From Marsupella aquatica (Eukaryota > Plantae > Marchantiophyta), in NCBI GenBank assembly GCA_973895155.1, contig OZ316897.1, forward strand, positions 22,233,455 to 22,297,454: a stretch of 64,000 nucleotides of DNA, written 5' to 3'. The position numbers were made by a program, and so were the translations under genes. Each line of letters starts with the position of its first letter. Position 1 is the stretch's first letter. Shown in pieces: positions 22,031 through 60,119 of this stretch. The notes under the pieces were generated by a model that saw nothing but the letters and a program-made list of their open reading frames with translations, made no database searches and had not been told where the DNA came from.

Positions 22031-25000
22031 GGTGTATCGGTAGATTGGCTGCCCACCTGTTGTTCTAATTCCGTTCGCTCCAATGTGATCAGGATTCAAT
22101 TAACTGCACGTCGTGGATAGTTTCGGCAGGCTAGTAAAGGAGCACTCAGACACGCAAGTCCGAATGCTTTCAGTGAGGTGATAATAGGGTAGATTTGGCA
22201 AGTCTAATAGCTGGTTCCGGTTGAATCGTTTGAACAAGGACAACGGTATTTATAGGAATTGAACAGGGAAATTAGCTGAGCGAATTGGCTGAGTGCAGTT
22301 CCTTGCAGAGAAAGGCAAGTCTGTTTGACAAAGTCAACAATTGGAAACAAAGGTTAGAAGGAAGGCCCGACGGCTCTCAACCCTCCTCCCGCCCGGCCGA
22401 CAGGCCCGGTCTTGTCTGTGCTGGGTCATGACTTTGTGAATTGACGAGCATGAGGACAAAAATTATTAAAGTGGTTAGCAGATCAAATTTATAAGTGAAA
22501 AGTGCATAAACGGAGCCTATTTGTAATACAAATCTGCACGCCGTATATGCATCGTATATCATTATATATATGAAACGTGGGGGTGTTCATGGTGCTGTGC
22601 ATCTATATATGCTGTAGTGAGATGTATTTGATAAAATGGCCCGAGAATAAATAAAGCACTAGAATAGTTCATGCTTGTTAGACCCGAACGTGGTGCCAAG
22701 TGGTGTTGCTGGGACGTTCACAGGGATCAGTCTACCGTTCTAGACCTTCTGCACCAAAAGCCTTTGGGAAGATCACTTAGTGTGATTTGTTCAACTCGTT
22801 TTTGTGAATGAGAATTGGGATAGAGACAGGTGGTGAGAAAGACCACCGCTTGCCAACAGTCGATTATTCCGAGATTACTCGGAGTCAGTCACTCATTGAC
22901 GAAGTTCAGTTACGTGTATCAGTCCGATTTCACAACAGAGGCCAGGTCTCTCCGGAAGTAGCTATTTCCGATCAATCAGGGATGCACGTACGCTTATCGC
23001 GTGAGGCTGGATTGCATAAGCTTAGTCTTTGATCCATGGTTAATGGATAATTGAAGGCGAGTCAAGCTGACTATTTCTTCTTGCCATGTCGAATTGCCGC
23101 CAACGAACCGGGAGAGAACATCAAATCTCCTACGTACTTCGTTTTTACGAGAGAAGGAAACCCCACAGCAGCAATCTTCACTTGGATGTTCTAGGCGATG
23201 AGGAAGCATACGAACTGACGAATAATTAGAATACCAGCTGAAACTTGTACTAACAAGCTGTACGTTGGAAGATTCAGTTCAATCAAATGATAGTTTCTGT
23301 CCAGTCTCGAGGGAAGTTTAAGCCCTGATAATAATATGGGCTTTTAACGATGGACGTGCCAACTTCCATGTAGTGAGTGAACCGGCAAACCCGAGACACC
23401 TCTTGAACTCCCCACCTTCATAGAACAAGCTAGGTTTTTGGATGTAGATAAGTTTCGGTCCCTTTGACGTCGTGTGGCAGGAAGTTACTTGCCAATCACA
23501 TATCCAGGCAATGAAGGAATGACATCAGAATCACTGATCTAGTCAGTATGTGACTAAATTTGGCAATGCTAGGCTTCTTAGCTAGCATTTCAAGCATGAA
23601 AGATTTGATTGAAAGATGAGGGAACAATTGAAATTAGTTTCTTAACAACCACATTGCAAGACCTTCAACGAATTAATAGCAGAATTTTTTTGAGATTTGC
23701 GATGTCTTAAATATTGGAGTAAATCTGGCAATGTTAAGTTAATTTGAAAATTAGGTCCATAAGGCTTATAATCCTTCCGAGCACGAAAGGTGTTATCAAA
23801 GATGAGAGAGAAAAAAAAATTTCGTTGCACTGCCAGAGAATGAAATTCATAAGTTCTTTAAGCTCAAACTGTCAAACTGTAGTACTTGTTTTCTTATTTT
23901 AAACGAGCTCAATACCCGTGCATTGCACAAAAGAAATCGTGTCGGCCAAGACGTCGTTGAGAAAAAAAAAATGTCATGTAAGCCAAGAGGTCGTGGAGAG
24001 AAAAAGTGTCGTGTCGGCCAAGAGGTGGTTGAGAGAAAAAAAGTCGTTGAGTAAAATAGATGTCATGTTGGCCAAGAGTTCATTGAAAAAAAAGTTGTCA
24101 TGTCGGCCAAGATGTCGTTGAAAAAAAGATGTCATGTGGGCAAAGACATCATTGAGAGAAAATATGTTGTGTCGGCCAAGACATCGTTGAGGGAAATTAC
24201 CCATGCATTGCACAAAGGATGTCGTTAAGAAAAAAAATGTCGTGTCACCCAAAATATCATTAAAATAAGGATCTCATGGCGCCCAAGATATTGTTAAGAA
24301 AACAGATGTTGTGGCGCCCAAGATGTAGTGTCCCCCAAGATGTCACTAAGAGGATAGTATTGTTGCGCCCAAAATGCTCTTAAGAGAATTATATGTTGTG
24401 TTTCTCAAGAATGATGTTCTTATGTGAAAAATGTCATGAAGTAAAAAGATGTTATTAAGAAAAATAAGTCATTTTGCCAAAGATGGCATGTTGCCCAAAT
24501 TAAAGGTCATCAAGTAAAAAATTGTGTCAAATAAGCAGATGTCATGTCGCCAACGATGTCGTTATGCCAAAGATGTCGTTAAGTATTAAGATGTTGTTAA
24601 GTATAAAATGGTCAATAGATAAAGTATGTCATTACTAAACGATGTTATGAAGTAAAAGATGTTGTTAAGTACATATCGGGCCTGATACCTGTGCATTGCA
24701 CAAGCGATGCATGTTGAGGTGAGAAAATATATCAAGGTGAGAAAAGATGTCGATAAGTGTCATGCCGAGGGACAGTGCCGCTTGTGCACATCGGCATGTC
24801 CCTCGCATGCCCGCTAGGTATGGTTAGGGCTAGTGTACTACTTGAGTTAGTGTCATGTTCTTGTAGCGAGTCTGGGCTGTTCTTGAAGCAAAAGGGGTTT
24901 GTTAGTGTGACGCCTAGACCCGGTCCTACTTAGGGCATGTTTTTCTTTGCCGTTCTACAGTTCTTCTTGAATCGCTGTGAGACAGAGTTTTTCAGAGGCT

Positions 25001-26495
25001 GCTCGTCGGTTCCGTACACGGAATTCACACAGTGATTCGTTAGATGCTCCCGGCCGATCTTGGCATCTCGCCGGTTTTTGATTCGATTTCAGCACGTTTG
25101 TTTCTATCACGCCTTTTATTCAAGAAGAACTCTCGAGTTAGCGGTGACGGGAAGAAGATTTCTTGTGGCAGTTTCGACAATTTTTGGTTAAGCCGTTGCA
25201 ATTTCCTTGATAGACATTGGAACGAGGCTTCAAAACTATGGGTTTAGTGTGGAGTTATGTGTATACTTAAGTGTATACACATAACACTCCCGTCGGGGCC
25301 CAGGTTTTCCTTTTCCGGCCGCAACCTTCTTTGTGACCTACATCGGCGACTTGCTGCCGACTGCACAGGCCGCTGCGGCCTCGCTCGCGTTTTTATGACC
25401 CTTGTTCGTTAGTTTTTATGGGCATTTTCCCGGCCACAGCTGCCGCGCGACCACTTCCCTTCCGACCGCGCGCCCCGTTTTTCTCTTTTTCGCCGTTTCC
25501 GGCCGTAGTCTCCCCTTTGCCTCCCTCCCGATCGCATAAGGCAGGCTGCGCATAGGGCATCGTGCCCTCTCGTTTTTGCCAGCATTTAATTAAGGAGGAA
25601 GGGAGTCGACTAGCGAGCACAAGCGCAAGGGGGGAGACAGAGCCGAGGCAGGCAGCAGCGAGTGGGCACGAGGCCCTATGCTGCATTAAAGGGGGAGGGG
25701 GAGTACATACGACTCCCTTCTCGGGAGTCCTCCTGCAGCACACGAAGCAGCATTGAAGCAGGGGGAGACAAGCGCAAGGAGAGAGGGCACGAGGCCCTAT
25801 GCTGCAATAAAAGGAGGCAAGGAGGGGGAGCGAGAGTGCCAGGAGAGGGCACAAGGCCCTAAGCTGCATTAAAGGAGGGGAGGGGAGTTCAATTCGAACT
25901 CCCTCACACGGGAGTACTTAGGCCTGCCAGGGCACGAAGCCCCAAGGAGGCTTCGGGAGCTCATAAGGAGGAGGGAAGGGGGTGCGAAGCCCTATGCACA
26001 GGGCTCATTTCTTTTTCTACGCCTCACTCTTCCCGTTTTCTTTTCGGCTTGTCTCACTTTTTCGCTGCGCGACGATCGACCTGCTGCCAGTTCCCGGGTC
26101 CACATCGGGCCGATGTGTATACACTTAAGGGGCCCCTTTCACGTGTTGCAGGGCCCATTTCTTTCCGTTCGCTCTTGCTTTGTTCTCGACTACTTGCATA
26201 GGGCACCGTGCCGGCCGGTCCTTCCTTTTTCGGGTCCACATAGGGACCCGACGTATACACTTAAAGGGGCCAAATGTATAGACTTAAGGGGGGCCCCTAT
26301 TCATGTTTTCAAGGGCCCATTCTTCCCGGATTTCTTTGCTGCCGCCACATGTCATCTGCATAGACTTTGACAGTTTCTCAGCGCTTACACATTCTACACA
26401 TTGCTGCCTTGTACCGTTTATTTCCTAGCCTTGGGGCTGCCACTCCTTTTTCTTGTCAATTTCTTTCCCATTGGCACCCTGGGTGAGCATGCAGC

Positions 26496-27490
26496 ATGTC
26501 AGCCGACGAGCCAGGAGGTAGCAGCTCATCGCCACCAACACCCCGGTACCACTTACGGAGTGATCCACGACCATTGGTGCCAATTTCATTGGAGTCTCGG
26601 CAATTTCGACGACGTCAGCAGACAGCAGCAGCACCCACACCATGCAACCCTTCTGCTACATTTGGCGGTCGCTTCACCTCTACCCCGAAGCCTGCTATCA
26701 CTTCTTTGCCTTTTTCTCCTTCTGCATCGGTGATTGTTCCAGCTTCACCGACATACAGCATGGATGCCAGCCACTCATCTGGCCGCATTGAGCGCTTCAG
26801 CGGGCGGCCAGGCACAGTCTCTTTACGTGAGTTCAAATCCACTTTCTACACTGTCGTTTACGAATTGGAGTTGAAGTATGGCAGCAATTTCACAAATGCT
26901 TTTGCATTTAAGCAGCTAGCCAGGTATGTGCACCACAAGGCTTTGGATGTGTATGAGCAGCATTCTCAACGGCTGCTTGCTGTCACACAATTGCCTAACC
27001 CTGCCTATGCCACTGCAATTGCGGCTGCCTCACAACTGGCATTACAGAATGCCATTGCAGCCCATGCTGCTGCTCCTGCCACTTCCCCTCCTACTCCAGT
27101 TCCCACCACTGCACCAGTTACTCCCACTGTCTTGGCACAGGCTACATCAGGCATTTCTCCCACCATTGATTCCCCTGCCTTTGCTGATCCAGTGGCTGAG
27201 TTTTTCCAGGTTCTTGAATTGGAATTCCCAATCAAGAGTGCTGACAAAATCATGCAGTTGACCACATTTGTGAGGCAGCGTGATGAAACATTGAAGATGT
27301 TGTATCGCCGGCTTCTCAAGCTGAAGGAAGACACCCAGAGCATCACTGACCTGGAAGCTGCTCATCGCTATCTTCGCGCGTTGGAGGGCACCCCAGCTCT
27401 CCAATCGCAAGTGTTGCAGCAAGTATTCTCAGAGTTTGGAGACAGCTACACCCTGCTCAATGTCTATGACACTGCTGAGAAACTTGAGTT
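26496..27490 (+). pseudogene. gag: gag N-terminal part of the DNMT retroelement (interrupted by the nested LTR element)
   Basis: IERFSGRPG...REFK and FVRQRDETLKMLYRRL capsid-like motifs; removing the insertion and one GAGTT restores the frame AEKLE-LAHAHYEAS into the 41042 ORF. The true start could be the ATG at 26760. Confidence 0.8.
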
Positions 27491-28880
27491 TGTCGTATAG
27501 TGCTAAGTATCAAAAGTGACTCTCCTCACCTAAAACCAGGGTTTCGATCCCTTTAAGAACAGATTTCAGAATGAATTGTATAACTTTTATCACTCCGAGT
27601 GATTTAGAGTCTTGAGCTCTATGTTGACTTCACTTCTCAATAAAAAAATCGAATAAACAAACAACAAAGTAACTGAACTTCTGATTTATGAATTAGAGAA
27701 GAAATGAGTAAGGATTTAGAGACTACAAGCTGCTACTGCCACTCCTTCAGAAAGGATTTGGGCTCAGTATAGACATGAAATCTATCTCATAATTCATCCA
27801 TCTCACTCTTCAAAACACAAAGGTTAATGATAATGGAATTCTCAATCTGATAAAGCAGAAGCTTTCTGATTGCAAATGAATGATATGATTTAAAATGCCG
27901 TCAACATGGTTTGACATCAGCGATACGCAATTCAGTCAAACTCTAAACCATATTCCAGAATCAAAGCAACAGTACTAACTACTCTGAGAATCAGAATTTA
28001 CTTCTCATTTATCATTAACTATTCTTGAATTGGCTAGCGAATCCTGACTCTGCAAGCAAGCCTAGCAGTGAATTCAATACGAGTTTCAGAAATCTGCAAC
28101 TGAATTCAATCACCACAGGAATCTCTTGAATTCAATCTTAACTTCAATCAATATAGCTTTACTTCCATACAAAACACTCACAGCATGCCTTGTTACAATG
28201 GAAGGAGGAGAAAACTATTCAGAAGACTCAATTCTGAATACAGTATTAACTCTATTTCTCTCTACTTCAAATGAGCATTCTACTCTGTCTTATAAGTGCT
28301 GGAATCCTAAAATGGAGGAGGTAAGAACAGTCGTGCCTTTCCAAGCTTAAAACTAAACAAGGGAGAAGCACAGCATAAGTACTTCAACAAGTGTGGTAGA
28401 ATACTACTTTACTAGTAATCTACTTCAAAAACTAAGTGTTGAGCGGACGCTGCTAGAAGCGTCGGGAGAATCTGGACGCTGCTAGAAGCGTCTTAAGTAA
28501 AACCAACGGACGCTGCTCACACTGCTCACAGCGTCAATACTAGGGTGGACGCTGCTCACAGCGTCGTGTGTTGAAGCTGACGCTTTCCACAGCGTCGGTC
28601 GAAATCCTCATAGAGTCTTGGTGGCGGTCGGGCACTGCCAAAAGCGTCATGAGGAGGTTGGACGCTTCCGCAGCGTCTTGAGTAAAAGAAACGGGCGCTG
28701 GTCACAGCGTCGGGCAAAGTACACTAGGAATCGTCAGGAAAGCCGGAGATGTCAAATATTTCTATAAGTGTCCAGAACAAGTAAATGTTGGCCGGAAGGT
28801 GTCTAAAGTGTAAGTAAATCTTGTGATATGCTAAAAATAAACAAGTTTCCAGAAAAAATTGCAGGGACACCCATACCACA
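27491..28880 (-). repeat. 3' LTR of the nested element
   Basis: Direct repeat of 39649-41038; only two substitutions noticed by eye. Confidence 0.97.
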
Positions 28881-28882
28881 TA

Positions 28883-28897
28883 GCCCTCCACTTAAAT
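28883..28897 (-). other. Polypurine-tract-like motif adjoining the 3' LTR (ATTTAAGTGGAGGGC)
   Basis: Abuts the 3' LTR; an identical 15-mer occurs at 32366-32380 just after pol. Confidence 0.7.
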
Positions 28898-28957
28898 TTC
28901 GCCGTGTCCCCACAAGACATGACCGAATTGAATCAGAAGCGAGTGACATGTTCTTCA

Positions 28958-29434
28958 TTAATAATATTCTGGCTTAATAATCCAAGTAGTGCTCAAAATC
29001 ATTGACGGGAGTTGGGAGATATCCGAATCCAGAATATAAAAATCGAGGTCATGGAATTCTTCTCCGATCTGTATTGGGACTCCTTTAACTCTTCCCCAAA
29101 GATTAATGATTCGTCCATCGATTGATATCTGAGCAGATATCGGTTGTACTTCTTGATGAACAAATTGCTGGCACAGTCTGTGGGAGAGGAAATTAATTCG
29201 AGAGCCTGGATCAATAACAAAGTGTTGAATAGCATGTCCTCCCAGTTTGATCTTGCCTTCAAAGGAATGTTGGAAAGCACGGGGTAAAGAATTCCAACAA
29301 TCCATAGTAGCTTTGATGTCCCACATGAGCAGATAAATATCAATTCGAAGGAGAAAGAAGGAAACAATTGCAGGATGCTGCAAAAGTAACGGCTTATATA
29401 CATATAAATGACAACACCGTTTGATATCTCTCAT
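28958..29434 (-). CDS. Extra ORF4: retropepsin-like (aspartic protease fold) domain, 158 aa
   Basis: IKLGGHAIQHFVIDPGSRINFLS ... GRVKGVPIQIG ... LDFYILD ... MILSTTWI parallels the element's own protease (IQGCVIRRVPVDGGASVNLIT ... GKLTKVETLIAG ... LDYVVIN ... VLLGRPWL). Confidence 0.6.
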   Translation of the reverse strand: MRDIKRCCHLYVYKPLLLQHPAIVSFFLLRIDIYLLMWDIKATMDCWNSLPRAFQHSFEGKIKLGGHAIQHFVIDPGSRINFLSHRLCQQFVHQEVQPISAQISIDGRIINLWGRVKGVPIQIGEEFHDLDFYILDSDISQLPSMILSTTWIIKPEYY

Positions 29435-29446
29435 AAATGGTGTCCT

Positions 29447-32020
29447 TCAAATCTGTGTCCTAGATAAAACACCTTGAATAATCACATCCGGATAAGAAGG
29501 AATAATAGGTAGGAACGCTAAACACCTAAGCGACTTGAACCCTTGGGAAGCCGGTAGCATACATTGTTTTGTAATCAACTGCTCCCTTAGCTTAACAAGC
29601 TTCTTCTCATATTTAATTGGAATAGCAAACCCACCAGGACAAACCCAAACATAGTATGGATAGGGCCATGGAATTTCCGGCACAAGGGGCGGAAATGGAG
29701 CTTGAGCTCGTCGAAGCATATACACCCAACACCAAATTTCGAACTCCGAAAACTTATGTCGTCTGTCCTTATCAATGGGAGGAACCGCCTTCCCAGGTTC
29801 ATATGTGCGAATCAAACTACGAATCCTCGGATGGGATGTCATTGGCAAAATCTGCTGCTGCTGCAAAATGCTCTCCATCTCCAGATGTCGAAAAGCTACT
29901 CGAAATTGTTTCTTCTCCCACCTGTGAATTGAAGCCAAATTAGGGATAGGATTTCGGGGTGGCAAATCCACTGTATGCCGAAGTCGAGGAGGTACTCTGA
30001 TAATGCGAGGGTCTTCGTCTTCTTCTCCATCACTTGGTGCTCCTATCCAACGGAAAATTACATCTGGCATAGCGGAAGGAATCACTGACTCCTTAACTGG
30101 TCGAATTGGCAATGTAACAGGAGACGAAGGAGCAGAAGGTTCGGGCTCCAGTGGTTCAAATTCTTCTCTTGCAACAGTAGCTGGTTGATCTGCAATGGAA
30201 TGCATTGGTACTAAAACAGGAAGTTCTTCTTTAAAATTATCGCTAGGTAAAGAGACTTCCTGGTTAGTTCGATCTGTCAAAAGTACAGGAAGGGGTAGCT
30301 CGTCTGTTCCGATAGGTGCTTCTCCCTGTTCAAAATCCTGGGAAGATGCTTCAGGAAAGATCTGTCGACTGATAGCATGGCGCAACCGTTTCCAAGATTT
30401 TCGAGTATACGTCACTGAAAACTCCTCCCGAATGTTTTTATCCTCGTTTGTAGCCAATGAAACTGGTGCTGAGCTGGTTGTCGAAGCGGGTGTCTCGGGT
30501 ACCAATATGGGTACAGATATACCCATATTACCAGATACCTGATTGCGACTCGGAAAACCAGCAGAGCCTCCTTCAATCAACTCATCTTCAGGAGAAACCC
30601 ATTTTACAGGCGGAAATGAAGGAGCTCCTATCGCGGCTATTGCCTCATCTAATTCCTTAGTTATATCCAAAGGAATCGATATGAGTGAACCAGGTGTAGA
30701 CCAGGCAGGGTATCTTGCGACAGATTGGGGAGAAGTCACTGGTTCACCTACTTCGTCTATATCCACAATTGCATCCTCCGAATCAACTTTAACCAGCTTC
30801 ACAATTTCTGAGCTTAATATTTCTGACTCCTGGACCAGAGGGATTTCACCTATATTTGGGCTAGAACTAAGAGAGTCGGACGAATCATACTCCTGTAAAG
30901 CCTGCAAAGCATCACTATTTGCCTCTATGGGAACCAAAACAGGGGTAGAAGTAAATCCATCATACTCGTCCTCAGCAGTAGAATGTTGAAGAGGTTCCCC
31001 TGAAAAACCTTCTTCATCCACCCTCACCTCATCTTCAACATTCATCCGAGAAGCAGAATTATCCTGATCAACATCATAAATAGGCTCGGCAGCACAAGGT
31101 GAACACGAGAGTCGAGGTGACATAGAATGCTCCAACCCTGTTGGCATTGCTGAAGGAACATCTTCGGCAACTTGAGCCTCTCTTGGTTGGTGAAGAATCG
31201 GATCGTCACTCCCTTCAGCTGATGCTCTTGTCTCTTTCAATTTCCGAACTTCACCCACCAGTTCAGGTTCCTCACAGTCGAGTATTGCACATAGCTCTAC
31301 CACTGTGGAATTGGCTCGGACTTCTCGTACTTCAGGCATATAATTTGCTTCACCGGTAGATGCTCTCTGATTGTTGCGATAAAAATCTTTTTCCAAGACA
31401 AGCAGACAGTCATACTTATGGTAAATGTGAGCTAAATAAGGGGCCAAGTAGGTACACCTTATTTTCCCCGTTTTCAGCCTGCTACGAAAATTTTTGACCT
31501 GAGTATGAATTACTCGGTGCAAAACCTTCGTCCAATTGATAGACTGCGTCTGTTCTAATGAACAGATCACCGTTGCAGCGAACGAAAGAGTGATGCGCGT
31601 CTGGCTTTCTGGGTAGAAAATTGGTGCCAGAAATCGAAATAGACGCTGCAGAGAATTATCTAAGCAGTCCGCCGCTAGCCATCCATTCCGCCTCTTGAAG
31701 GATCCTGGAGCGAAGAAGGATTCTACATAAACCCGAGGCTCACAATCAACCCTCTGTAAATCCTCGCCCTCCATCGGCGTCGAATAGACCTTCGCTATGA
31801 GCGCTTCAGTCCAAACACTGGGACGCGAGCGCACATCAATCCTTTCTTCAGCGTCCCAGACACCTTGATCGATAAGGCTGAATTCGCAAATCTTCCAAGG
31901 AAGTTGAAGCAGCTTCTTCAAGCCCATTTTTGCCAGAGCCGTCTTCAACTGCCGCCTATGCACTGCATTCGATGGAATGTCTGTGAGTATTGGTCGCGTC
32001 GTCAGCTCAGTCTCCGCCAT
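29447..32020 (-). CDS. Extra ORF3 (env-position accessory protein), 857 aa, unknown function
   Basis: Long uninterrupted ORF between the two PPT motifs; globular N-terminal ~210 aa, acidic/Pro-rich middle, basic/aromatic C-terminal domain. Confidence 0.8.
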   Translation of the reverse strand: MAETELTTRPILTDIPSNAVHRRQLKTALAKMGLKKLLQLPWKICEFSLIDQGVWDAEERIDVRSRPSVWTEALIAKVYSTPMEGEDLQRVDCEPRVYVESFFAPGSFKRRNGWLAADCLDNSLQRLFRFLAPIFYPESQTRITLSFAATVICSLEQTQSINWTKVLHRVIHTQVKNFRSRLKTGKIRCTYLAPYLAHIYHKYDCLLVLEKDFYRNNQRASTGEANYMPEVREVRANSTVVELCAILDCEEPELVGEVRKLKETRASAEGSDDPILHQPREAQVAEDVPSAMPTGLEHSMSPRLSCSPCAAEPIYDVDQDNSASRMNVEDEVRVDEEGFSGEPLQHSTAEDEYDGFTSTPVLVPIEANSDALQALQEYDSSDSLSSSPNIGEIPLVQESEILSSEIVKLVKVDSEDAIVDIDEVGEPVTSPQSVARYPAWSTPGSLISIPLDITKELDEAIAAIGAPSFPPVKWVSPEDELIEGGSAGFPSRNQVSGNMGISVPILVPETPASTTSSAPVSLATNEDKNIREEFSVTYTRKSWKRLRHAISRQIFPEASSQDFEQGEAPIGTDELPLPVLLTDRTNQEVSLPSDNFKEELPVLVPMHSIADQPATVAREEFEPLEPEPSAPSSPVTLPIRPVKESVIPSAMPDVIFRWIGAPSDGEEDEDPRIIRVPPRLRHTVDLPPRNPIPNLASIHRWEKKQFRVAFRHLEMESILQQQQILPMTSHPRIRSLIRTYEPGKAVPPIDKDRRHKFSEFEIWCWVYMLRRAQAPFPPLVPEIPWPYPYYVWVCPGGFAIPIKYEKKLVKLREQLITKQCMLPASQGFKSLRCLAFLPIIPSYPDVIIQGVLSRTQI

Positions 32021-32403
32021 CGCGTGACTTGTTAGCTCCGTAAGCTCAGTGAGAATCGTGTTCCATAGTGAACTAGGGCGAAGCGCGACTGCTTACTCCT
32101 CAGCGTCCCGTTGAGCTGTCGCAATCCGCCATTGTACAAGATGCCTAGTCATCGGCTCACAGCGTCTCATGCAACTGAACTAATACAAAAGCGGACCTCT
32201 GCACAACGTCCTTTGTAAACTAAGTGGACGCTTCCCCAGCGTCGAGTTACAATGGACGCTTTTCACAGCGTCCAATGTAAAAACTGAAAGTAACTAAAAA
32301 AAATTAAAAAAATATGCCGAATACTTACTAGGGAGGGTCACTAATTCTAACTAAGTATAACTACCGCCCTCCACTTAAATTGCAACCTGTCCCAGGTGGA
32401 ATT

Positions 32404-39624: not shown

Positions 39625-39642
39625 TCCCCGGCAGCGGCGCCA
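39625..39642 (-). other. Primer-binding site TGGCGCCGCTGCCGGGGA (tRNA-Asp type)
   Basis: 6 nt from the 5' LTR; matches the Athila-type PBS complementary to the 3' end of plant tRNA-Asp (sequence recalled, not aligned). Confidence 0.85.
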
Positions 39643-39648
39643 AAAAGA

Positions 39649-41038
39649 TGTCGTATAGTGCTAAGTATCAAAAGTGACTCTCCTCACCTAAAACCAGGGT
39701 TTCGATCCCTTTAAGAACAGATTTCAGAATGAATTGTATAACTTTTATCACTCCGAGTGATTTAGAGTCTTGAGCTCTATGTTGACTTCACTTCTCAATA
39801 AAAAAATCGAATAAACAAACAACAAAGTAACTGAACTTCTGATTTATGAATTAGAGAAGAAATGAGTAAGGATTTAGAGACTACAAGCTGCTACTGCCAC
39901 TCCTTCAGAAAGGATTTGGGCTCAGTATAGACATGAAATCTATCTCATAATTCATCCATCTCACTCTTCAAAACACAAAGGTTAATGATAATGGAATTCT
40001 CAATCTGATAAAGCAGAAGCTTTCTGATTGCAAATGAATGATATGATTTAAAATGCCGTCAACATGGTTTGACATCAGCGATACGCAATTCAGTCAAACT
40101 CTAAACCATATTCCAGAATCAAAGCAACAGTACTAACTACTCTGAGAATCAGAATTTACTTCTCATTTATCATTAACTATTCTTGAATTGGCTAGCGAAT
40201 CCTGACTCTGCAAGCAAGCCTAGCAGTGAATTCAATACGAGTTTCAGAAATCTGCAACTGAATTCAATCACCACAGGAATCTCTTGAATTCAATCTTAAC
40301 TTCAATCAATATAGCTTTACTTCCATACAAAACACTCACAGCATGCCTTGTTACAATGGAAGGAGGAGAAAACTATTCAGAAGACTCAATTCTGAATACA
40401 GTATTAACTCTATTTCTCTCTACTTCAAATGAGCATTCTACTCTGTCTTATAAGTGCTGGAATCCTAAAATGGAGGAGGTAAGAACAGTCGTGCCTTTCC
40501 AAGCTTAAAACTAAACAAAGGAGAAGCACAGCATAAGTACTTCAACAAGTGTGGTAGAATACTACTTTACTAGTAATCTACTTCAAAAACTAAGTGTTGA
40601 GCGGACGCTGCTAGAAGCGTCGGGAGAATCTGGACGCTGCTAGAAGCGTCTTAAGTAAAACCAACGGACGCTGCTCACACTGCTCACAGCGTCAATACTA
40701 GGGTGGACGCTGCTCACAGCGTCGTGTGTTGAAGCTGACGCTTTCCACAGCGTCGGTCGAAATCCTCATAGAGTCTTGGTGGCGGTCGGGCACTGCCAAA
40801 AGCGTCATGAGGAGGTTGGACGCTTCCGCAGCGTCTTGAGTAAAAGAAACGGGCGCTGGTCACAGCATCGGGCAAAGTACACTAGGAATCGTCAGGAAAG
40901 CCGGAGATGTCAAATATTTCTATAAGTGTCCAGAACAAGTAAATGTTGGCCGGAAGGTGTCTAAAGTGTAAGTAAATCTTGTGATATGCTAAAAATAAAC
41001 AAGTTTCCAGAAAAAATTGCAGGGACACCCATACCACA
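39649..41038 (-). repeat. 5' LTR of the nested element
   Basis: 1390-bp direct repeat of 27491-28880, adjacent to the PBS. Confidence 0.97.
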
Positions 41039-43165
41039 GAGTTGGCCCATGCACATTATGAGGCCAGTATTGCGCGTCCACCGCGATCCAGGTACCAGGC
41101 TGCTGCTCCTACACTGGCCACTCCTTCCCGTGTGCCACAGTATGGTTCCAAGACCAAGCCAACACATGTTGCTTTCATGCTGCCATCTTGCAACTACTGT
41201 GGTAACCCTAATCACAAGGCTAATGAATGTGAGATTGTTGCTGAGGACCTGTCTTGTGATTTTTGCGGGAAAGTGGGCCACTTGGAGGCAGTTTGTTTTG
41301 CCAAATTCCCCGAGAGGAAGCAGCTACGACAGCAGGCCACTCATCCTGCTCCTATTTCAACTCCCCCACCAGCTAGGAGGGCTCCTACTGCATCAGTTGC
41401 TCCTCCTTCCAGTGGCAAAGCATCCAGTGCTAACAAATTGCCCAAGCAGCAACAAAAGCAACCCGCTCAGAAGGAGGCTCACAACGCACAGGCAACTCAA
41501 CTCCAGTCTCTGACTCATGAGGTTGAGTCATTACGTGCCCAACTTGCCAACATCAAAGGCAAGTCCACTGCCTCTGTTGTTCCTTCTCAACCGGCTGGTC
41601 ACGTGCAACCCATCCCTGGCCCAGGCACCTCTGACAGTTCAGCACCCCTACCCCGCTCTTTCTATGGCTTGCCATTTGATGCTCATATGGGTGAGTGTGT
41701 GTTGTCCTCTGCTCCACAGCCTGGCCTTACAGCAGAATTTTCAGATTCATTCGGCCCTTCCTATTTTGCTTACCAGCAGGCCAGTGCTGCCTCCCGTATT
41801 GCTCCCACACGCCGCATTGTACAAGCTGATGGTCTTGCTGCTGGTCCTATGACTAGAGCCAGGGGAGCTCGGGCTGTCATGCCCCAATCTTTTCAGCCAC
41901 TCACACTTGCTGAAGAGCGCACCTTGTTGGCGAGGGGGGAGGGAGCTACAGCTACATCCATTCCACCACCAGGTGCTGCTGACATTTCACAGGGAGTTGT
42001 TTTTCCTGAGCTGCTTGAGCATTTCACCTCCGGTATGGCACAAAGGATTCTTACCACTCCACTTTTTAGTTGCCATGATTTACAACTGGATGCTAGAGCT
42101 ATCATCAGAGCGCTAGAGGGCTCACTGCATTCTTCATCAGCCCCTGTGACACCGGTTTTGGAGGTCCAATCTCATGTTAATACTGGACCTTCTTCTTCTC
42201 CATTGCATGCTTCCACTGGTTTGGCTATCCCAGTACAGATTTCCAGTGGTAGAGATGACAGTATTGCTGTAGATTGTGTGACCAGAGCTACACTTGATTC
42301 TGGTCATGCTGCTCCATCTTTCCTGGCTATGCTGTTGAGTGGGAAGACCATGGACACTAACTCCCTTCACAAGGTACCTCATCATCTGCCAAAAGTGGTG
42401 CCTAGTGATAGGACTTTAGTTTCCACCACCATTGCCATTGTTGACAACAGGAATTCAGCAGTCAAGTTGGAGGGTCACACTCCTCAGGTGGTCATGCTAG
42501 ACACAGGCGCTCAACGAGTAATCTTGGGCATTCAGTTTGCCAAGAAGATGGGACTGCTAACTGATCATTTATAGCAATCCAGGTGGCACATTCGGACTGC
42601 TAGTGGCACTGTGGAGGATGTGTTGGGTGAGAGTTCTACTTTACTCACTCTCACTTTTAATGGAGGTACAGATCAGGAACTGCATTTCCTAGTCAGATGT
42701 TTGGTTACCAATGCCACTACGTATGATGTGCTCATTGGCCAGGAGGCTTTGTTCCCACCAGGTTTTACCATTGACAACTGGCATGAGCATGCATACTACA
42801 GAGTTGATTGGCATACGGATGGCTCACACTTGGGATACATTCCACTTGATTTGCATGGTGCCCATACCCCTATGGCTCACCACTGTGTGTTGAAAGCAGT
42901 GCACACAGCTACCTATGTCAACCACCCATTGCAGGATTGGATTGAGGAGGATGAGGATGAGGTGGCTATTGCACATGCTGCTGCACGTGTAGCAGCACTT
43001 TCCAGCAACGTGGATCATCAACCAGAGGTGGTACAACGGCTCCAAGCAGCCCATGGACCTTTGGTGGCTGCATTGCACAAATTTGAGGACCTTGGGCAGC
43101 ATAATGGACAACCAATAGCCCCAATCTTGAGCGCACCAGTTACCTGGACTCCTCCTTCAGATGGC

Positions 43166-44110
43166 CTTACATTGCTTGAGCTTTTTGGTGGCATTTCTAC
43201 AGGCCTGGAAGCTCTCCTAAAGTCTGGCATGGTGGTGAAGCAGTACATCTATGTGGATATTGATCCAAGTGCAAGGCAAGTGGCTGAATCCCGTCTGCTG
43301 GAATTTTCAGAGCGATTTCCTCAGCAGTTTCCACACAGTGCATGGAAGTCTGCATTTTCTTTCTTTCCTCCAGATATCCAGCTTGTCCAGCACCGGCACT
43401 TAACCCTTCTTGGCTCCCTTGATTTGATCATAGCTGGTTGGGAATGCCAAGGGTTTTCAGCTGCTGGTCATGGTGCTGGACTGCATGATTCTCGTTCTGG
43501 CCTTTTCACAGCATTGGTTCAGATTCTCACCTGGGCTCAATCCCTTTATCCTGCTGTTGGTTATATCATTGAGAATACTCCATCTCAGTTTGACCAGCGT
43601 CCACAGGTCAAAGAGGATTTCAGTGTGGTCCAACACTACTTGGGACCACCCCTTCTCATTGATGCAGTGCACTGTGGTTCTTATGCACATCGTCTTCGTA
43701 ACTTTTGGACTAACCTTGCACCACCTTCCTTGCTGGAGATGGCTCTTCACCACACATCCAGGGACACTAACCTTGCAGTGGACCAGATTTTGGATCCTGA
43801 CAGTTCTTGCCAACCAGTTACACGGCAAGAGCCAGCACCTTGGTATCCAGCTAATACCATTGGACAACCCCGTGCTGCTTGGCCTACATTTGTGTCCTTT
43901 CCAGGTGCACATGCTTTTCAGGGTGATGGTCCTGGGCTGGTTTATCGACATTCTACCGGTACATGGGATGAACCTAGTCCTGAGGAGAGAGAACGGGCTA
44001 TGGGCTTCCAACCCGATACTACAGGTCACACCAAAATCACCAGGCTGGCCAGGAATGCTTTACTTGGCAGGGTAATGGATCTCAATGCTCTCACTTGGCT
44101 TCTGGTCACT
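43166..44110 (+). other. C5 cytosine DNA methyltransferase domain (DNMT3/DRM-like motif style) inside the polyprotein
   Basis: Motif I LELFGGISTG, II YVDID, III PDI, IV IAGWECQGFSAAG (Cys codon 43445-43447), V GLHDSRSGLF, VI IIENT, VIII AHRLRNFWTNL, IX ERERAMGF, X RNALLGRVM; open across the whole domain. Confidence 0.9.
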
Positions 44111-47100
44111 TGCATCCTTTTTCAGATGTACATTCCTCCAGCATTAGGAGCTCCAGCCCTACCCCTCCACAGTGCTGCTACATGGCATCCAGACCAGGTG
44201 CACTTACCTCTAGTCAACACTCACCGCTTCAGTCCAAGTGTTGGGGGGGAGGAGGTCCCTTGTAATGTGGCTGACATTATTTATGAGTTTCATGGTGTGG
44301 ATCAGACTAGAGCAACAGATACAGCAGGCCTTGGAGAGGCCTCATCACCTTATCAGCAGCATGCTAGCAGCTTGGACAGTGGAGAGGCTGGCACTTCTGG
44401 CTCTTCAAGCACGAGTACATCAGGTCCTATTCCTAGTGTTGCCAACTACACATTTATCATGGGCAACCACCTGAGTAAAAGACAGAAGGACCAGCTGCTG
44501 AATTTGCTCCTCAAGCATGAGAATGTGTTTGCTTTCTCTATGAAGGACTTGGGTAAGTGCAAGACTATGCAGTTCTCCATTGAGTTGGCTGATGAAACAC
44601 CTATCTTTAGGCGGAGACACCGTTTGAGTAAGCATGAGTGGCAGCTGGTGGATGAGAGGTGCCAAGAGCTTTATGAAGCTGGTCTTATTCAGCCATCTAC
44701 ATCAGATTTTGCGGCAGCTACAGTGATGCCAGCAAAGAAGGACTCCAGTGGATTGTGGACAGAGAAGCGCATGTGTGGGGACTAGGCCATTGAACCTGGT
44801 CACACCCCAGGACAGGTACCCCATGCCGCGGCCAGAGGAGCTATTTGATAGCATTGGAGACTCAGACATCTTCACTCTTGTGGATCTAAGGCAAGGCTTC
44901 AACCAGATTTTGCTGCTTGCAAAGGATCGCAAGAAAACAGCTTTCCATGGTAGTAACCAACTATGGAAGTGGTTGGTGATGCCATTTGGCTTGAAGAATG
45001 CGCCCATATTCTTTCAAAGAGTCATGGACCAGGTTCTGCAAGGTGCTGAGTTTCTGAAATGCTACATTGATGATGTGTTGGTCCACAACAAAGGATTTGA
45101 CCAGCATCTACTTGACCTTGAGGAGCTATTCATGAGGCTTAAGAAGGTGAACCTAAAGATACACCCCAAGAAGTGTGAATTTGCTGTCAGATCAGTAGTA
45201 TATCTTGGGCATCGCATTCTTCCAAATGGAACCATGGCTCACTGGGCCAAGGTGGTATCCATCTTGGAAATGCCCACTCCTACCGATGTTCACACTTTGA
45301 GGAGTTTTATTGGGTTGTGCAATTACTACCGGATCTACATCAAAGATTTCAGTACCATTGCACACCCATTGTATGCTTTGTTGAAAAAGAATGTGACTTG
45401 GACATGGAGTACAGATGCTGAGGCAGCATTTGCCACTTTGAAGGAGAAGCTCTCAGAATAACCGGTGCTGAGAAGACCTGATTTCAACAAGGTCTTTGTG
45501 TTACACACAGATTGGAGTGCCCTTGGGATTGGTGCCATTCTGGGCCAGCATGATGAGGAAGGTAAAGAGTACGTCATTGCCTATGCATCCAGGAGCAACA
45601 ATCAGGCAGAGAGTCATTATTCTTCTTATGAGGGTGAATGCCTTGCTGTTGTGTGGGCTGTCATACATTACAGGCCCTACCTCTATGGGACCAGGTTTGT
45701 TCTCTACACCGACCACCAGCCCTTGAAGTGGTTGATGACCAACGACAAGCTTACTGGCAAGCTTGCTCGTTGGGCACTCATACTCCAGGAGTATGATTTT
45801 GAGGTAATTCATAGGCCTGGTGTGACACATCAAAATGCTGACACTATGTCCCGCAGCCCTTTGATTGCCTCTGATGATCCCTCAGATGCACGGCAGGATT
45901 TTGACCAGGTTTCCATCCTGCCTACATTTCATGCATCTACCTATCTTGCTTTGCTGCCATGCTACATTGTTGACCAACCTGTGGTGGACATATGGGAGGA
46001 CAGTGACACTCTGAGATTTCTGCAGGATGGGAGTACCCCACCCATGTTACTGCTGCCCAGAGAGACCGAATTCAGCAAAGGTCCAAGCGCTACTTGTGGA
46101 AGGGAGATCATCTTGTGCGCTGCTTGCCAGACAGGGAAGTGGTGGTTCCACCCATTCATGAGAGGGTTGGCCTTATCCGTAAGGTACATTCTGAGCTTGG
46201 TCATTTTGGTGTTAAGAGGACTTATAGCCTCTTGGTCCCCCATTATCATTGGAGAGGCATGCATGGCCAGGTTCGAGATGTTATTGCCCGGTGTGAGCAG
46301 TGTGATAGGGTAAGGACTTCTTTCACATCTTGGCAACCCACACTTCATCCACTCCCTATTCAGGGCATGTTTTATCGTTGGTCATGTGATTTTGCTGGAG
46401 AATTACCCCTCACATCTCGGGGTAATCTCTACATCATGATCATGATAGAGCATTTCTCCAAGTGGATAGAACTTGTGGCATTGCCGGATAAGACCTCCCG
46501 TAGCACCAGCTAGGCATTCTTGCAACAAGTTCTCAGCCGCTTTGGAGCTTGTGCAGAATGTCTCACTGACCAGGGCTCAGAGTTTAGAGGAGAGTTCCAG
46601 GAGCTGCTTGATCAGGCTCTCATTGATCATCGCCGGACATCCCGAGATCACCCATGGGCAGATGGCTTGGCATAGCGCATGGTTCAGACATGCAAGAAGG
46701 GCCTTCGGAAGATCTGCCTCACCAAAAACAAGGAGGATTGGGACCTGGCCTTACCCTACATTGCCATGGGGTATAGGATGTCCAGACATGCATCACTGTC
46801 TAACTTTTCTCCCTACTTCTTGTTGTTTGGTCGTCACCCAGTTCCACCTTCTGCTATTGCTTCTCACATGCTTCAGGTGGTGGACTTGGATTCAGCTGTG
46901 ACTTGGTCTGATGTGATCTCTGAGAGGGCTGCCCTATTCAGGAGGGTTATGCCCATGGCCATGGAGAATTTGGCCATTGCACAGCACAGGGACACACTGC
47001 GTTATGCACACACACGAGGGGGCACTTTTCAGCCCAAGGTCAGGAAGTTTGAAGTGGGAGATTTTTTGTACTTGCAGCGGCAAGCTAACGACACCCTGGA

Positions 47101-47281
47101 CACCTCTACCAGTCGCACTATTCTCAGGGTCAAAGCTATTCGACCGTCTGGAGTGCTAGAGTTACAAGGGGCAGATGGGCGCACAATTGCTGACAATGCC
47201 AAGAATTGCGCCCCTTGTCATCTGCCTAACCTGGATCCCACCATTGTGACTTCTACTTGGATTCCACCTGTGGACTACCCT

Positions 47282-47416
47282 TGCAAAGTGTGTTTGCGAA
47301 TTGATGATGTTGACCAGATGCTGCTGTGTGACAATTGCAATGGAGGGTACCATCTTTTCTGCCTTCGGCCTGAACTTACCCAGGTGCCAGAAGGGTTATG
47401 GTTTTGCCCTTCCTGT
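47282..47416 (+). other. PHD finger at the integrase C-terminus
   Basis: CKVC...MLLCDNCNGGYHLFCLRPELTQVPEGLWFCPSC is a canonical C4HC3 pattern, in frame with the integrase C-terminal ORF 46679-47434. Confidence 0.93.
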
Positions 47417-50400
47417 GCTCCACGTGCTACCTGAATTTTCTTCAGCCCTCCTTTTGACTGTGGTCTGGGGGGGGATACAGAGGTTTACACCTCCACTACG
47501 TACATACCATCTCAGTTGCTTTTTCTTGGCACTTGTGAATGTGATTGGACTTTTTTCTCAGGATGTTGGTTGCTAGCAGCTTGCACATATGCATTGCCGG
47601 TGACTTGTATGTTTTCGATACACTATGGCTACGATACTATATGTCACGACATAAGAGAAAAACATTTTGAGCTGAGAGAAATATGTCAAGGAAAGAAAAT
47701 ATAGCAAGGTGAGAAAAAGATGTCATATAGAGAAAAAACATTCGGAGGTGAGAAAAATAAGTCAATGAGAGAAAAGATGGTGAGATGAGAAAAAGATATC
47801 AATATGAGGGAAAATGTTGAGGGTGACGAAAGATGTTGTGGTGAGATAAAGATGACCAGGTGAGTAAAATATGGCAAAATGAGACAAATATAATATATAT
47901 GTTGAGGTGAGAAAAGATCTCAAGGTGAGGAAAATATGTCAAGATGAGGAAAGATCTTGAGGTGAGAAGATCTTAATATGAAGAAACTATGTCAAGATGA
48001 GAAAATATTTTATCTATATTTTATTTATATTTGAAAATATTTCAAAAAAATCAGAATTTTTAATTTATGAATAAATTTAATTAAAATTTGATTAATTTTT
48101 TCAATTGTGGCAGGTATGGGAAGGTTAAAGGGTAGCTTGGGCAGGAACTTGTTTTTAGAAGGGGTGTATGGATAGATCTTAAAGTGTGGAAAAAATTATG
48201 TTTTGATAAACATTCAAGATTGATTGTCGCTTTTTTGTAGTTTGTAAAGGGACCCGATCAGGATTATAGTGGTACATGGTAAAGGGAGGCCTCCTTGATA
48301 CTCTTGCATTGCTAGAGACCCTCCTTATTTTTTTTACTATTAAATTCATTTTGTGCTTGGAAACATTGCTCTCCATTTTCATTCACAAAAGAAATCATTC
48401 TTTCATGTTTTTCATGTTTGTAACATATAACTCTTGCATTGCTTATAATGTTATTGCATTGATTATAGTAGTCTTCATTCTTTCATGTTTATCATTCTTT
48501 ATTTTCATTCTTTATTTTCATTCTTTATTATAGTAGTCTTTCATTCTTTCATGTTTTTCATGTTTTTCATTGTTTTTATTATAGTTTTTGATATGATCTT
48601 TGTAATCTAACTTATTTTTAATTAACTTATTTTAATTAAATTACTATCATTATTATATTTTACAATATTGTAATACTTACAATAATATATAGTGTAATGT
48701 ATATTATGTATTTTTGTATTTCATGTGTATAACTCCTTGATACCCATGCATGTACATTCACTCTCTTGTTTTGTGTGCCCCATTGGTTCTAGCATTGGTT
48801 CCCTACTTTTGTGTCTCCTATTTGATTCCCCGTTTGTTTGGAATGTATTTATTATTTTTTGGTGCACACTGTATTTAACATAACCTTTATTCCTTCTTTT
48901 TGACATGATTAATATTTTTCGGACATTACAAATTTGAATGAATACCACTTCATAAAAAGGCGCAACCTTGTATTATAGTTTAGTATATTAACAAGGGATG
49001 GTGGGCTATAATAACCGGGAGCTATACTGTAGCTCCAGTTTCGAGATGCTGTTATTCCCCATGCAGGACAGTAATACACTTAAATATGCCTACAAGAGTT
49101 TTAATGCTTAGTAGAAATAGAGAAGTTTTGTATTGTCCCCATCCAAATATCAATGTTTGGGAAGATAATGCTGCTCACTAAAGTAGACTGTTCCCCTATG
49201 CTTCTAACTGTTTCCTAATGCAGAGCCTTCGTTAGAGGACAAGGTCCCAACGGTGCAGCCGTGGCAGAGCAAAATGTTACAGATAGGCCTGATAATTAAA
49301 GTGGTTTTTCATAAATGGGCAGCTAACTCTTTCTCCTTGACCCAGGGCCACTTGTAAAATAAAGGAGAAGTTCATTAAGAGGGCCCCTCTTGCATCTTTA
49401 GGACTTGATGGACATCAAAGATGGATTGAATACTTAACTAGACCCTTATGATGGTGAAGCTTTGTAAGTTCTAGAAACAAAGCCCAGAGAGACATGGCAG
49501 TGTGGTAGTTCACTTGAGTAGTGACTCATAGGTATTGGGTTCAAAAATTGTGACTGACTAATCCCTTTCTGTGGAGTTTTACAGATTTCCCCTTAAAATT
49601 AAAAATTTTTAATTTTAAATAAAACTTCTAGAAACAAAGTAGCAGCAAAAATTTGAACTTAGTGGAAGTTGGGTCCTTCTCCATTACACAGGGCACCACT
49701 GCTGCTACTCCTGGTGCAATTAAACCTGCAGAATTTTATTGGGTGACAGAATGAACTCTGTCTGAGATGATAACATATTGTTGGGTTGACCTCAGATGTT
49801 CAAACTTCCTCCTGACTGGGAAAGTTGGGACTTCTTGCCAGTCATGTTCAACTCTCAATCTGATGAACTCCGGTAAAACTTTCCCACAAACTACAATCTA
49901 CACTTCGGCCCTTACTCTTTTTTTATTTGCAATCCATGATTTTGGCTCTTCAATATATAGAGTTGACCAGTGAGTCCCAAACCCTGACAAAGTGGATTTT
50001 GTATGCATCTCAACTTTGCAATGAAAACTGTGCATGCATCTCTGGGGCGCTAGGCTAGTAGTAAATAATCACTTGAATGTGTAAAGTGGCAGTGAATCAC
50101 TAAAGTTATTTTGAATTTGTTGCATCTCGATCGTCCATGTGCATCTCTCCCAATTACACTTCCCCGTCCCCACCTTAATTCCTATTAGTTGTAGGGAGGA
50201 AAAGAGGAACATCCCATAATTCCAGCCACAGTTCCAGCCCTGCCAAAATAAAGCCCTTACATACCCACCTTCCCCTTTTCCAGTTCTAATTTTAGTAACA
50301 TATGCATTGAAAAAGTTTGGCATAGCACCTAGTACACAAAACACATTCTTTACTCTAAAAATGGTTATTTTCTCATCCTTTATTCCCACCTTTATTGAGT

Positions 50401-59716: not shown

Positions 59717-60119
59717 TGTCGGAGAACGAGCTCGAAGTGTAGCTAGGAGCGTGTGGATTGGGCGAAGTTTACGGTATGCTTGCTCTGAGTTTGGCGTTGT
59801 AATGGCATTCTGAGTGTGGACTTGTGGAGATTGCAGAAAGATCCAAGGAATGTTTATACTGTCTTGCTCTGCGAGCTCTTATTTAGAGGTTTGGTGTGGA
59901 GGAAGGTTGGTTTGAGAATCCGAAAAATATAAAACGAAGACATGGACCACGACGTTTGGCCATCATTGTGTCCGGGCAGGTAGGAATTCGAACAGTTTGT
60001 TCTTTCCGTGTGTACTAGGTGTTCTAGAACGTGTCTTCCTTAGAGGTCTACTGCAATTTGGATGGATGTAGGAAGGAATTTCTTAGGAAGTTTCTGAAAC
60101 AAAAGTTCAAAAAACCTTC

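Follow-up and report, generated by a model that had tools for sequence, protein, structure and literature searches.

Organization of the locus

The stretch of Marsupella aquatica DNA analysed here (64 kb, referred to as the window) harbours a Gypsy-type retrotransposon at 24758-47651 on the plus strand, as are all parts described below unless stated otherwise. The element measures 9,341 bp without a nested insertion, and its coding order is gag, protease (PR), DNMT3-like methyltransferase, reverse transcriptase (RT), RNase H (RH), integrase, and PHD finger. Judging by its sequence, this broken copy is a dead element in the short form of a split-repeat family, in which a module A precedes the coding region and a module B follows it (A-coding-B). 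The nested insertion, to be kept apart from its host element, is an ordinary young Gypsy LTR element of 13.5 kb on the minus strand (27491-41038), with LTRs at about 27491-28880 and 39649-41038 that are 99.86% identical and with a 5-bp duplication GAGTT (27486-27490 and 41039-41043). One contig of run X2 passes from 41039 straight into gag, thus representing the empty site.

Module A (24758-25119) begins with TGTCATG and is the putative right half of an LTR (promoter, R, U5). Contig depth is high up to about 25143, while the end of the module at 25119 was set by analogy with relatives, where the identity between the two A copies (A1 and A2) stops at the primer site. An imperfect palindrome is predicted to fold just inside the left end (24761-24809), and relative L023 has a predicted hairpin at the matching position. 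Further inside, positions 24959-24972 form a perfect 14-nt complement of 25118-25131, equalled by only one of 1000 shuffles; the 5′ arm of this duplex is the predicted start of the transcript, and the 3′ arm, at the end of A, is the predicted self-primer binding site. A canonical TATA box is absent from the matching place in the window copy. The variable leader (25144-26486), in which self-comparison reveals short direct and inverted repeats and a palindrome at 25254-25285, has a contig depth far below that of both flanks and gave no Pfam match in the three frames scanned.

The gag-like ORF is split by the nested element. Its first part (26487-27490) has no Pfam match, and the ORF has collinear matches in relatives; the remainder (41044-42574) bears two CCHC-type knuckles and, from about 42461, the start of an aspartic protease with an in-frame stop at 42572-42574. 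A C5 cytosine methyltransferase domain lies between protease and RT (43172-44092; PF00145, E 2.2e-6); its best solved relatives are DNMT3A proteins (E 1.2e-7), with the catalytic Cys aligned. In this respect the window copy differs from 24 of 26 long homologs, where the methyltransferase is downstream of RT. RT and RNase H (44727-45794; PF00078, PF17917), assigned to Gypsy through Pfam matches only, are damaged by a frame break near 44783 and a stop at 45459-45461. The integrase (46151-47000), consisting of an H2C2 finger and an rve core, has a frame break near 46028 and stops at 46511 and 46673; two Asp of the catalytic triad are present, and the third position, Glu in P0027 and P0032, is the stop at 46673. 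A PHD finger (47282-47416; PF00628, E 8.7e-12) ends pol, with the stop at 47432-47434. The G-run noticed earlier at 47467 is a G8 polypurine tract (47467-47474), found at the same place in relatives, directly before their B1/B2 repeat. Module B (47475-47651), the putative left half of the LTR, contains short tandem subterminal repeats, ends with CACGACA, and is 177 nt long, as compared to 176 nt in L012.

Ends and target site

An earlier note on this DNA described precise integrase-type ends, and TGTCATG (24758-24764) and CACGACA (47645-47651) are indeed complementary at six of seven positions, flanked by TAAG on the left (24754-24757) and on the right (47652-47655). Taken alone, such ends are weak evidence, since four position pairs no more than 150 nt from each end give TG..CA together with a 4-6 bp duplication; among these, 24758/47651 has the best inverted repeat. 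They are nevertheless read as real integrase-type ends because 15 contigs of run X3 diverge into unrelated sequence precisely at position 47651 (agreement 0.39), contig depth rises over bins 24703-24828 in all four runs, and relatives end in the same motifs with 4-bp duplications. No loose contig end at 24758 occurs among the 24 rows listed (612 further rows). In 17 complete related insertions, the 4-bp duplication is exact in 12, carries one mismatch in four, and is lacking in one, and a 5-bp duplication is never found, which favours TAAG over the ATAAG alternative. Removal of the element restores the register of the host tandem repeat, as can be read directly from the sequence.

The reported lack of a direct repeat shared by leader and trailer was borne out: their best match is only 14 nt (E 0.3), and neither end of the copy matches the rest of the window. 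There is no tRNA-type primer site in the copy, in agreement with the missing TGG-type site reported earlier, and no tRNA gene was found in the 64-kb window.

Two forms in related insertions

The relatives examined are the best 80 of 497 confirmed loci, retrieved with a query that required integrase; they come mostly from one old burst in short-read metagenome assemblies and include no very young copies. They comprise 39 long, 34 short, and 7 incomplete or rearranged loci. Dropping duplicates and loci with too little flank leaves 59 distinct insertions, 30 short (A-coding-B) and 29 long (A-coding-B-A-B), which have their ends and 4-bp duplications in common. Split direct repeats are thus present in about half of the insertions, and ordinary LTR pairs in none of the 19 loci whose 5′ end is visible (7 short, 12 long); B never stands ahead of A1 in these 19, nor does any of them have the layout A-B-A-coding-B.

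On the integrase tree, the two forms are intermingled (19 changes versus 19.8-20.0 when shuffled). With stars on 3 of 56 and 7 of 26 inner branches, tree resolution is poor, and the lack of clustering, of these forms as of the joint types treated below, is weak evidence. Because short forms are scattered among long ones, the repeat-less form appears to be a recurring product and not a lineage, and the idea of an LTR-less Gypsy lineage put forward in the earlier note is not upheld. In the organism of the window itself, the 24 rows per loose-end table (1194 and 612 further rows) show neither a B|A nor an A|B joint. Two scans of viral contigs gave no relatives. The order B-A-leader-gag in L081, L083, and L084 could be read as tandem copies; this reading was set aside, as a collapsed assembly gives the same order. 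L081 was assembled as a circle (127-nt overlap).

Junctions, primer sites, and repeats

In relatives, the B1/B2 repeat begins directly after the polypurine tract, and module A ends at the self-complementary primer site. B joins A via the palindrome GACA-GC-TGTC, which is kept in relatives at 45-52% protein identity. The spacer in the 29 long forms is GC (13), AC (9), GT (3), AT (3), or AA (1), and 28 of these are derivable from GC by transitions. In all four distant relatives (45-52% identity), GACAGCTGTC is located 56-108 nt downstream of the G-run. B1 and B2, each 176 bp long, are direct repeats separated by about 290 bp; in L082 they are the same across 106 bp.

In 19 of 21 rows, the arms of the self-primer pair best where expected, and at least 10 Watson-Crick pairs form in 17. 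They are perfect, with letters differing, in the window copy, L023, L081 (0 of 300 shuffles), and L084 (9 of 300), and the duplex is not clear in L083. The primer arm begins 30-38 nt downstream of a TATA box in relatives. Priming in this family is likely not tRNA-based.

The joints between A2 and B2 (n = 29) are full in 12 cases, two bases shorter by the script's rule in 9, and of other kinds in 8; in L067, the joint contains about 290 nt of leader in addition to the primer site. Joint types are not clustered on the tree (15 changes versus 13.8), and the variation looks as if ends had been joined afresh in each copy. Transversions between A repeats amount to 0.019 within an element versus 0.035-0.042 between elements (n = 11), and for B repeats to 0.015 versus 0.026-0.028 (n = 29), with the own partner being the nearest repeat in just 5 of the 11 A cases and 5 of the 29 B cases. 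The divergence of A does not track that of B (rho 0.14, P 0.68, n = 11).

A probable permuted LTR with an internal attachment site

Since B starts after the polypurine tract, A ends at the primer site, and the B|A junction is palindromic, the family probably has B-GC-A as its true LTR and carries the integrase attachment site within that LTR, and the window copy would be a dead short form of such an element (probability about 0.65). Only the long form would be competent for replication, with a transcript that begins in A1 and ends in A2. Reverse transcription would be primed, as in Tf1, by pairing of roughly the first 12 RNA bases with the site after A1, a self-priming for which there is precedent (PMC4600332). 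Ordinary strand transfers, which A1 and A2 can provide, would then yield the linear cDNA B-GC-A...coding...B-GC-A, which has no attachment sites at its ends. Integrase would make a 2-nt staggered cut over CA-GC-TG, producing both CA-3′ ends together; cleavage of a palindromic LTR-LTR junction by integrase likewise has precedent (PMC1905944). The earlier suggestion of a different priming and strand-transfer mechanism would hold for priming, which is likely not tRNA-based, and the integration route also departs from the textbook one, whereas strand transfer can be ordinary.

A long form would result if the junction of the 5′ LTR is used and the two free cDNA ends are joined, either before integration as a circle or after it by host repair. 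A short form would arise from a one-LTR circle, from cleavage of both junctions, or from B1-B2 annealing in repair, and that of the window would date from insertion or thereabouts. The PHD finger and methyltransferase may act on chromatin and are unnecessary for this scheme. Long copies in the genome of the window should carry B-NN-TGTCATGCC behind ends equivalent to 47651, with A2 stopping near the equivalent of 25119. A symmetric two-LTR-circle model in its plain form was rejected: it predicts A-B-A-coding-B, found in 0 of 19 loci, and because of this zero an extra, unexplained asymmetry is required.

It is unlikely, though less so than the other alternatives, that all copies with the same permuted LTR are born long and that short forms arise later by B1-B2 recombination, in the manner of solo LTRs. 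The direct repeats are available for it, and it would produce precisely A-coding-B, retaining the duplication and leaving such copies scattered on the tree. However, short and long forms are of similar age (P 0.30, 0.45, and 0.27), and the share of short forms does not rise with age (short:long 10:9, 12:7, and 8:13 per age third), in a sample whose lack of very young copies leaves room for early recombination.

Quite improbable is copying of the Ngaro/PAT type, where transcription would begin in A1 and continue into B2, the missing ends would be templated by the internal B1|A2 junction, and integrase would trim GC from two ordinary linear ends. The repeat order is that of Ngaro, PAT, VIPER, and TATE (PMC6681497), the lack of A-B-A-coding-B is accounted for, and GC fits ordinary 3′ processing in size; yet the start of B at the polypurine tract, the end of A at the primer site, and the unlike joints between close copies, one with primer site and leader, are left unexplained.

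In retroviral replication, the first strand transfer lands on a 3′ copy of R. A truly repeat-less family in the host of the window, spreading as A-coding-B by a new strand transfer or Ginger-like cut-and-paste, would lack that landing site and is the most doubtful reading: the window copy has no repeat, about a hundred similar copies are indicated by the family/flank contig depth ratio (a rough estimate), and the long form is seen only in relatives, the closest at 77-82% protein identity, but the window landmarks (ends, G-run, length of B, primer duplex) all match split-repeat relatives, in which short forms make no clades.

Comparison with known elements

As expected of Ty3/Gypsy elements, the window copy has the pol order PR-RT-RH-integrase, a DDE integrase, TG..CA ends, and a duplication within 4-6 bp. 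The primer site behind the 5′ repeat and the polypurine tract before the 3′ repeat are matched by the self-complementary site and the G-run. In contrast to the two complete terminal LTRs of Ty3/Gypsy, the window copy has none, and its relatives have split repeats. The closest description is that of KnitGypsy-Dnmt3 from Klebsormidium nitens, which likewise has a Dnmt3-like domain in addition to Gypsy pol (de Mendoza et al. 2018, PMC5890265). The legend of Fig. 4c in that paper likens the repeat arrangement to that of DIRS elements, which is given elsewhere in the paper as A-coding-B-A-B. This layout is absent from the window copy and present in 29 of 59 close relatives. The likeness is one of description, no K. 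nitens sequence having been identified among the matches. The accessible part of the paper says nothing of a short form, a junction palindrome, self-priming, a PHD finger, or a mechanism, and no published mechanism for the layout was found in the literature.

In Tf1/Sushi elements and plant Tcn1 chromoviruses (PMC4600332, PMC6317226), as here by sequence, the primer site is complementary to the RNA of the element itself at its predicted 5′ end; these are described as having ordinary paired LTRs and mostly a chromodomain, whereas the present family has a PHD finger and split repeats. Ngaro, PAT, VIPER, and TATE have the repeat order A1...B1-A2-B2 in common with the long form and, according to the same source (PMC6681497), use a tyrosine recombinase, as opposed to a DDE integrase with TG..CA ends and a 4-bp duplication. 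Membership in DIRS/Ngaro/PAT was rejected, given the rve integrase and no recombinase match in the frames scanned. The resemblance to Ginger transposons noticed earlier is superficial. Ginger1, Ginger2, and GingerRoot share a Gypsy-like integrase with the window element, and Ginger1 also TG..CA ends and a 4-bp duplication (PMC6839031), but they have no RT, while RT, RNase H, polypurine tract, and primer site are all present here; moreover, GingerRoot has inverted repeats of 100-150 bp, TA ends, and a 6-bp duplication. With RT and RH present and an inverted repeat of just 7 bp, Ginger/GingerRoot membership was discarded. Also dismissed were Troyka (PMC12440569), animal only, with paired LTRs, CG..CG ends, and a 3-bp duplication, alike only in having unusual ends; REM1 of Chlamydomonas, described as having a truncated, reversed integrase; and Gypsy-7a_cRei, which shares the PHD finger yet has two LTRs.

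The proposed cut has known parallels. In IS911-type junction cleavage, a DDE enzyme acts on a palindrome of two abutted ends. The DDE enzymes of HIV-1 and foamy virus have been reported to cut such a palindrome at two-LTR circle junctions (PMC1905944; PMC1180852). In all these systems, the junction is a by-product or enzyme-made, while in the family considered here it is encoded in the LTR and would be the sole attachment site.

Significance

In seed-free plants, a high-copy family with a DNA methyltransferase and a PHD finger would likely be missed or mis-cut by tools searching for paired terminal LTRs. More broadly, and tentatively, at somewhat less than even odds, an LTR-internal palindrome may have taken over from the cDNA ends as the attachment site in an old LTR lineage of green plants, with integrase opening the junction like a bacterial circle-junction transposase and repair of the leftover ends determining if a new copy is live (A-coding-B-A-B) or dead (A-coding-B), in roughly equal shares. 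If true, this would break the rule that the two priming sites make the attachment sites of an LTR element, and would account for a layout drawn once, in 2018, for KnitGypsy-Dnmt3. It would also provide a natural case in which cutting of an internal palindrome, hitherto examined as a side activity in retroviral integrases, is the normal integration path, and would name a directly testable 10-bp substrate. The family may show how split repeats of the DIRS type can originate from an ordinary LTR, and its route would be a third integration mode for LTR elements, between retroviral end-processing and DIRS-type circle recombination.

Ends and coding content of the element

The Gypsy-type retrotransposon with a DNMT3-like domain and a PHD finger (24758-47651) is bounded by TAAG|TGTCATG on the left (24754-24764) and by CACGACA|TAAG on the right (47645-47655). 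Four position pairs no more than 150 nt from each end fit TG..CA with a 4-6 bp duplication, so that the ends needed outside support; among these pairs, 24758/47651 has the best inverted repeat. In public sequencing data, 15 contigs of run X3 part from the window at 47651 and continue in unrelated sequence (agreement 0.39); contig depth rises in the bins at 24703-24828 in all four runs, stays high until about 25143, and then drops. These observations confirm the integrase-type ends proposed in the earlier note. Its statement that leader and trailer share no direct repeat also holds: self-comparison of the window gave only a 14-nt chance match as their longest common stretch and no second copy of either end. 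The contig depth of the element family (1200-1700, against about 17 for one flank contig) suggests very roughly a hundred copies.

Without a nested insertion, the element comprises 9,341 bp and encodes, in this order, a gag-like ORF, protease, C5 methyltransferase, reverse transcriptase (RT), RNase H, integrase, and a PHD finger. The solved structure closest to the methyltransferase is DNMT3A (E 1.2e-7). Among integrases with a named source, the closest are those of Calypogeia fissa, a liverwort (87%), and of Sphagnum, which suggests a seed-free plant as host. The window copy is dead, with stops at 42572, 45459, 46511, and 46673, the last being the third catalytic residue of the integrase; its frame also breaks near 44783 and 46028. 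In the window (43172-44092), in its close relatives, in the distantly related locus L081, and in the homologous protein P0001, the methyltransferase is placed between protease and RT; in most of the distant homologs (among P0002-P0026), it follows RT/RNase H and precedes the integrase. The domain has either shifted position or been acquired on two occasions. A further C-terminal extension beyond the PHD finger is present in several distant homologs, and L081 (9285 nt) has two long open frames, separated by one stop that falls between its methyltransferase and its RT.

The nested insertion is a young Gypsy LTR element on the minus strand (27491-41038), possibly Athila-like, with 1389-bp LTRs 99.86% identical and a 5-bp duplication; its empty site is present in one contig of run X2. 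It has long open frames for gag-protease (1018 aa) and RT-RH-integrase (990 aa), as well as an extra 881-aa ORF and a 162-aa ORF ahead of the 3′ LTR, neither of which has a Pfam match.

The tandem repeat hosting the DNMT3 element (23904-24757 and 47652 to about 48985; related copy at 17990-19630) is an insertion of roughly 2.2 kb relative to a duplicated segment at about 7021-7040, and is probably another multi-copy mobile element. Two short-chain dehydrogenase ORFs, both on the minus strand (15445-16773 and 58715-59878), belong to a 2.2-kb segment present in duplicate with 93% identity, and the entire window is pieced together from segmental duplications with 82-96% identity.

Two forms among relatives

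A scan of metagenome contigs gave 603 matched stretches, 497 of them confirmed, and the best 80 of the 497 were kept. Behind the PHD stop, nearly all 80 loci carry a G-run, then module B (about 176 bp) with the end motif of the window; what follows is either unrelated flank or two bases and the start motif of the window. Mapping of B and of module A (290 bp) on the best 80 of 497 assigned 39 loci to a long form, A-coding-B-A-B, and 34 to a short form, A-coding-B, with 7 incomplete or rearranged. Two rearranged loci with inverted segments beside the PHD end (L027 and L072) were excluded from the counts. After removal of duplicates of a single insertion and of loci with less than 330 nt of flank, 59 distinct insertions remained, 29 long and 30 short. 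The 4-bp duplication is exact in 12 of the 17 two-ended loci (3 short, 9 long), has one mismatch in four, and is absent from one; a 5-bp duplication occurs in none of the 17. The window copy is a short form. Short tandem units, two or three in number, close module B, and an imperfect palindrome of about 50 nt just inside the left end (24761-24809; at the A start in relative L023) keeps its position with different letters.

A probable permuted LTR

The split repeats of the family are likely a permuted LTR. In relatives, identity between the two B copies begins directly behind the G-run, and that between the two A copies ends at a fixed point, behind which no tRNA-type primer site was found. The sequence there is instead complementary to a site in A, 30-38 nt past the TATA box. 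The pairing is best at the expected place in 19 of 21 rows, 17 having at least 10 Watson-Crick pairs (two rows represent one insertion). In the window, 24959-24972 forms an unbroken 14-nt duplex with 25118-25131 (1 of 1000 shuffles), and two of its pairs differ from those of L023, each on both sides. Among the distant relatives, L081 has a perfect 13-mer duplex of different sequence (0 of 300 shuffles) and L084 a 12-mer (9 of 300); no clear duplex was seen in L083, and L082 lacks the first A.

By the established rules of reverse transcription, the cDNA would begin with the base that follows the polypurine tract and finish with the one that precedes the primer site. Its LTR would accordingly be B-NN-A, with the TG..CA ends in mid-LTR. 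The complementary site has the same layout as in Tf1-type self-priming, as described in the accessible parts of PMC4600332 and PMC6317226.

Junction and joint

The two-base B|A spacer of the 29 long copies reads GC in 13, AC in 9, GT and AT in 3 each, and AA in 1, so that the junction is a palindrome, GACA-GC-TGTC, eroded through transitions. This 10-mer is found 56-108 nt past a G-run in all four distant relatives, L081-L084 (45-52% identity; two belong to one family), eukaryotic retrotransposon contigs that stray in three prokaryote genome assemblies and are likely contamination. A 2-nt staggered cut across the palindrome would produce both CA-3′ ends, and we infer that the element integrase makes this cut. 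According to the accessible part of PMC1905944, HIV-1 integrase is able to cleave a palindromic junction of two LTRs.

Of the joints between the second A and the second B in these 29 copies, 12 are full-length, 9 lack two bases as scored by the script, and 8 are altered in some other way; inspection by eye gave an additional base in L051, one of the 9. Joint types show no clustering (15 changes against 13.8) on a tree with good support for 7 of 26 branches, and the joint looks to be made anew. In L067, the second B is preceded by the primer site plus some 290 nt of leader, as expected if the joint links right and left cDNA ends. Repeats within an element are closer than those between elements, for both A and B; this is a weak signal, the own partner being nearest in just 5 of 11 (A) and 5 of 29 (B) cases, with no correlation between A age and B age. 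As to the long form in the window's own organism, neither of its joints (B|A or A|B) was found among the 24 loose ends listed per table (a further 1194 and 612 exist).

Origin of the short form

The earlier note had suggested an LTR-less Gypsy lineage with a different mechanism; a likely different integration stands, and the lineage does not. Short and long labels are scattered on the integrase tree (19 changes against 19.8-20.0 shuffled; 3 of 56 inner branches well supported), and the short form is a product. Gradual loss after insertion is argued against by the ages, which are alike in both forms by three proxies (P 0.30, 0.45, 0.27; short:long 10:9, 12:7, and 8:13 by age third) in a sample without very young copies.

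From a symmetric two-LTR circle, A-B-A-coding-B and the long form should arise equally often; the former arrangement was seen in none of 19 loci, nor was B found ahead of the first A in any of them (one has just 158 nt of room). The left end seems always to derive from the 5′-LTR junction, a bias that might reflect when each end is synthesized or a signal in the leader, for which the 25254-25285 palindrome is a candidate.

Relation to known elements

Troyka, GingerRoot, VIPER/TATE, and Gypsy-7a_cRei, compared from the accessible parts of their descriptions, all differ from the element. DIRS elements have a recombinase and ordinary Gypsy elements paired LTRs; the window element lacks paired LTRs and has no recombinase match in the frames scanned. 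It resembles self-priming Gypsy elements up to the cDNA and likely departs from them at integration. No published account of a permuted LTR or internal attachment site in such elements was found in a search that left Repbase and most subscription journals outside, and "permuted LTR", "split LTR", and "A-B-A-B" occur in none of the 25 matches listed out of 177. The name KnitGypsy turned up in one paper. A 2026 preprint (10.64898/2026.05.21.726589) mentions streptophyte Gypsy-DNMT3, with no terminal structure in its accessible parts. De Mendoza et al. (2018) describe KnitGypsy-Dnmt3, a Klebsormidium nitens Gypsy element with a Dnmt3-like domain, a figure legend giving its repeats the arrangement of DIRS elements (PMC5890265). 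It is with this element, judging from that description, that the window element most likely belongs.
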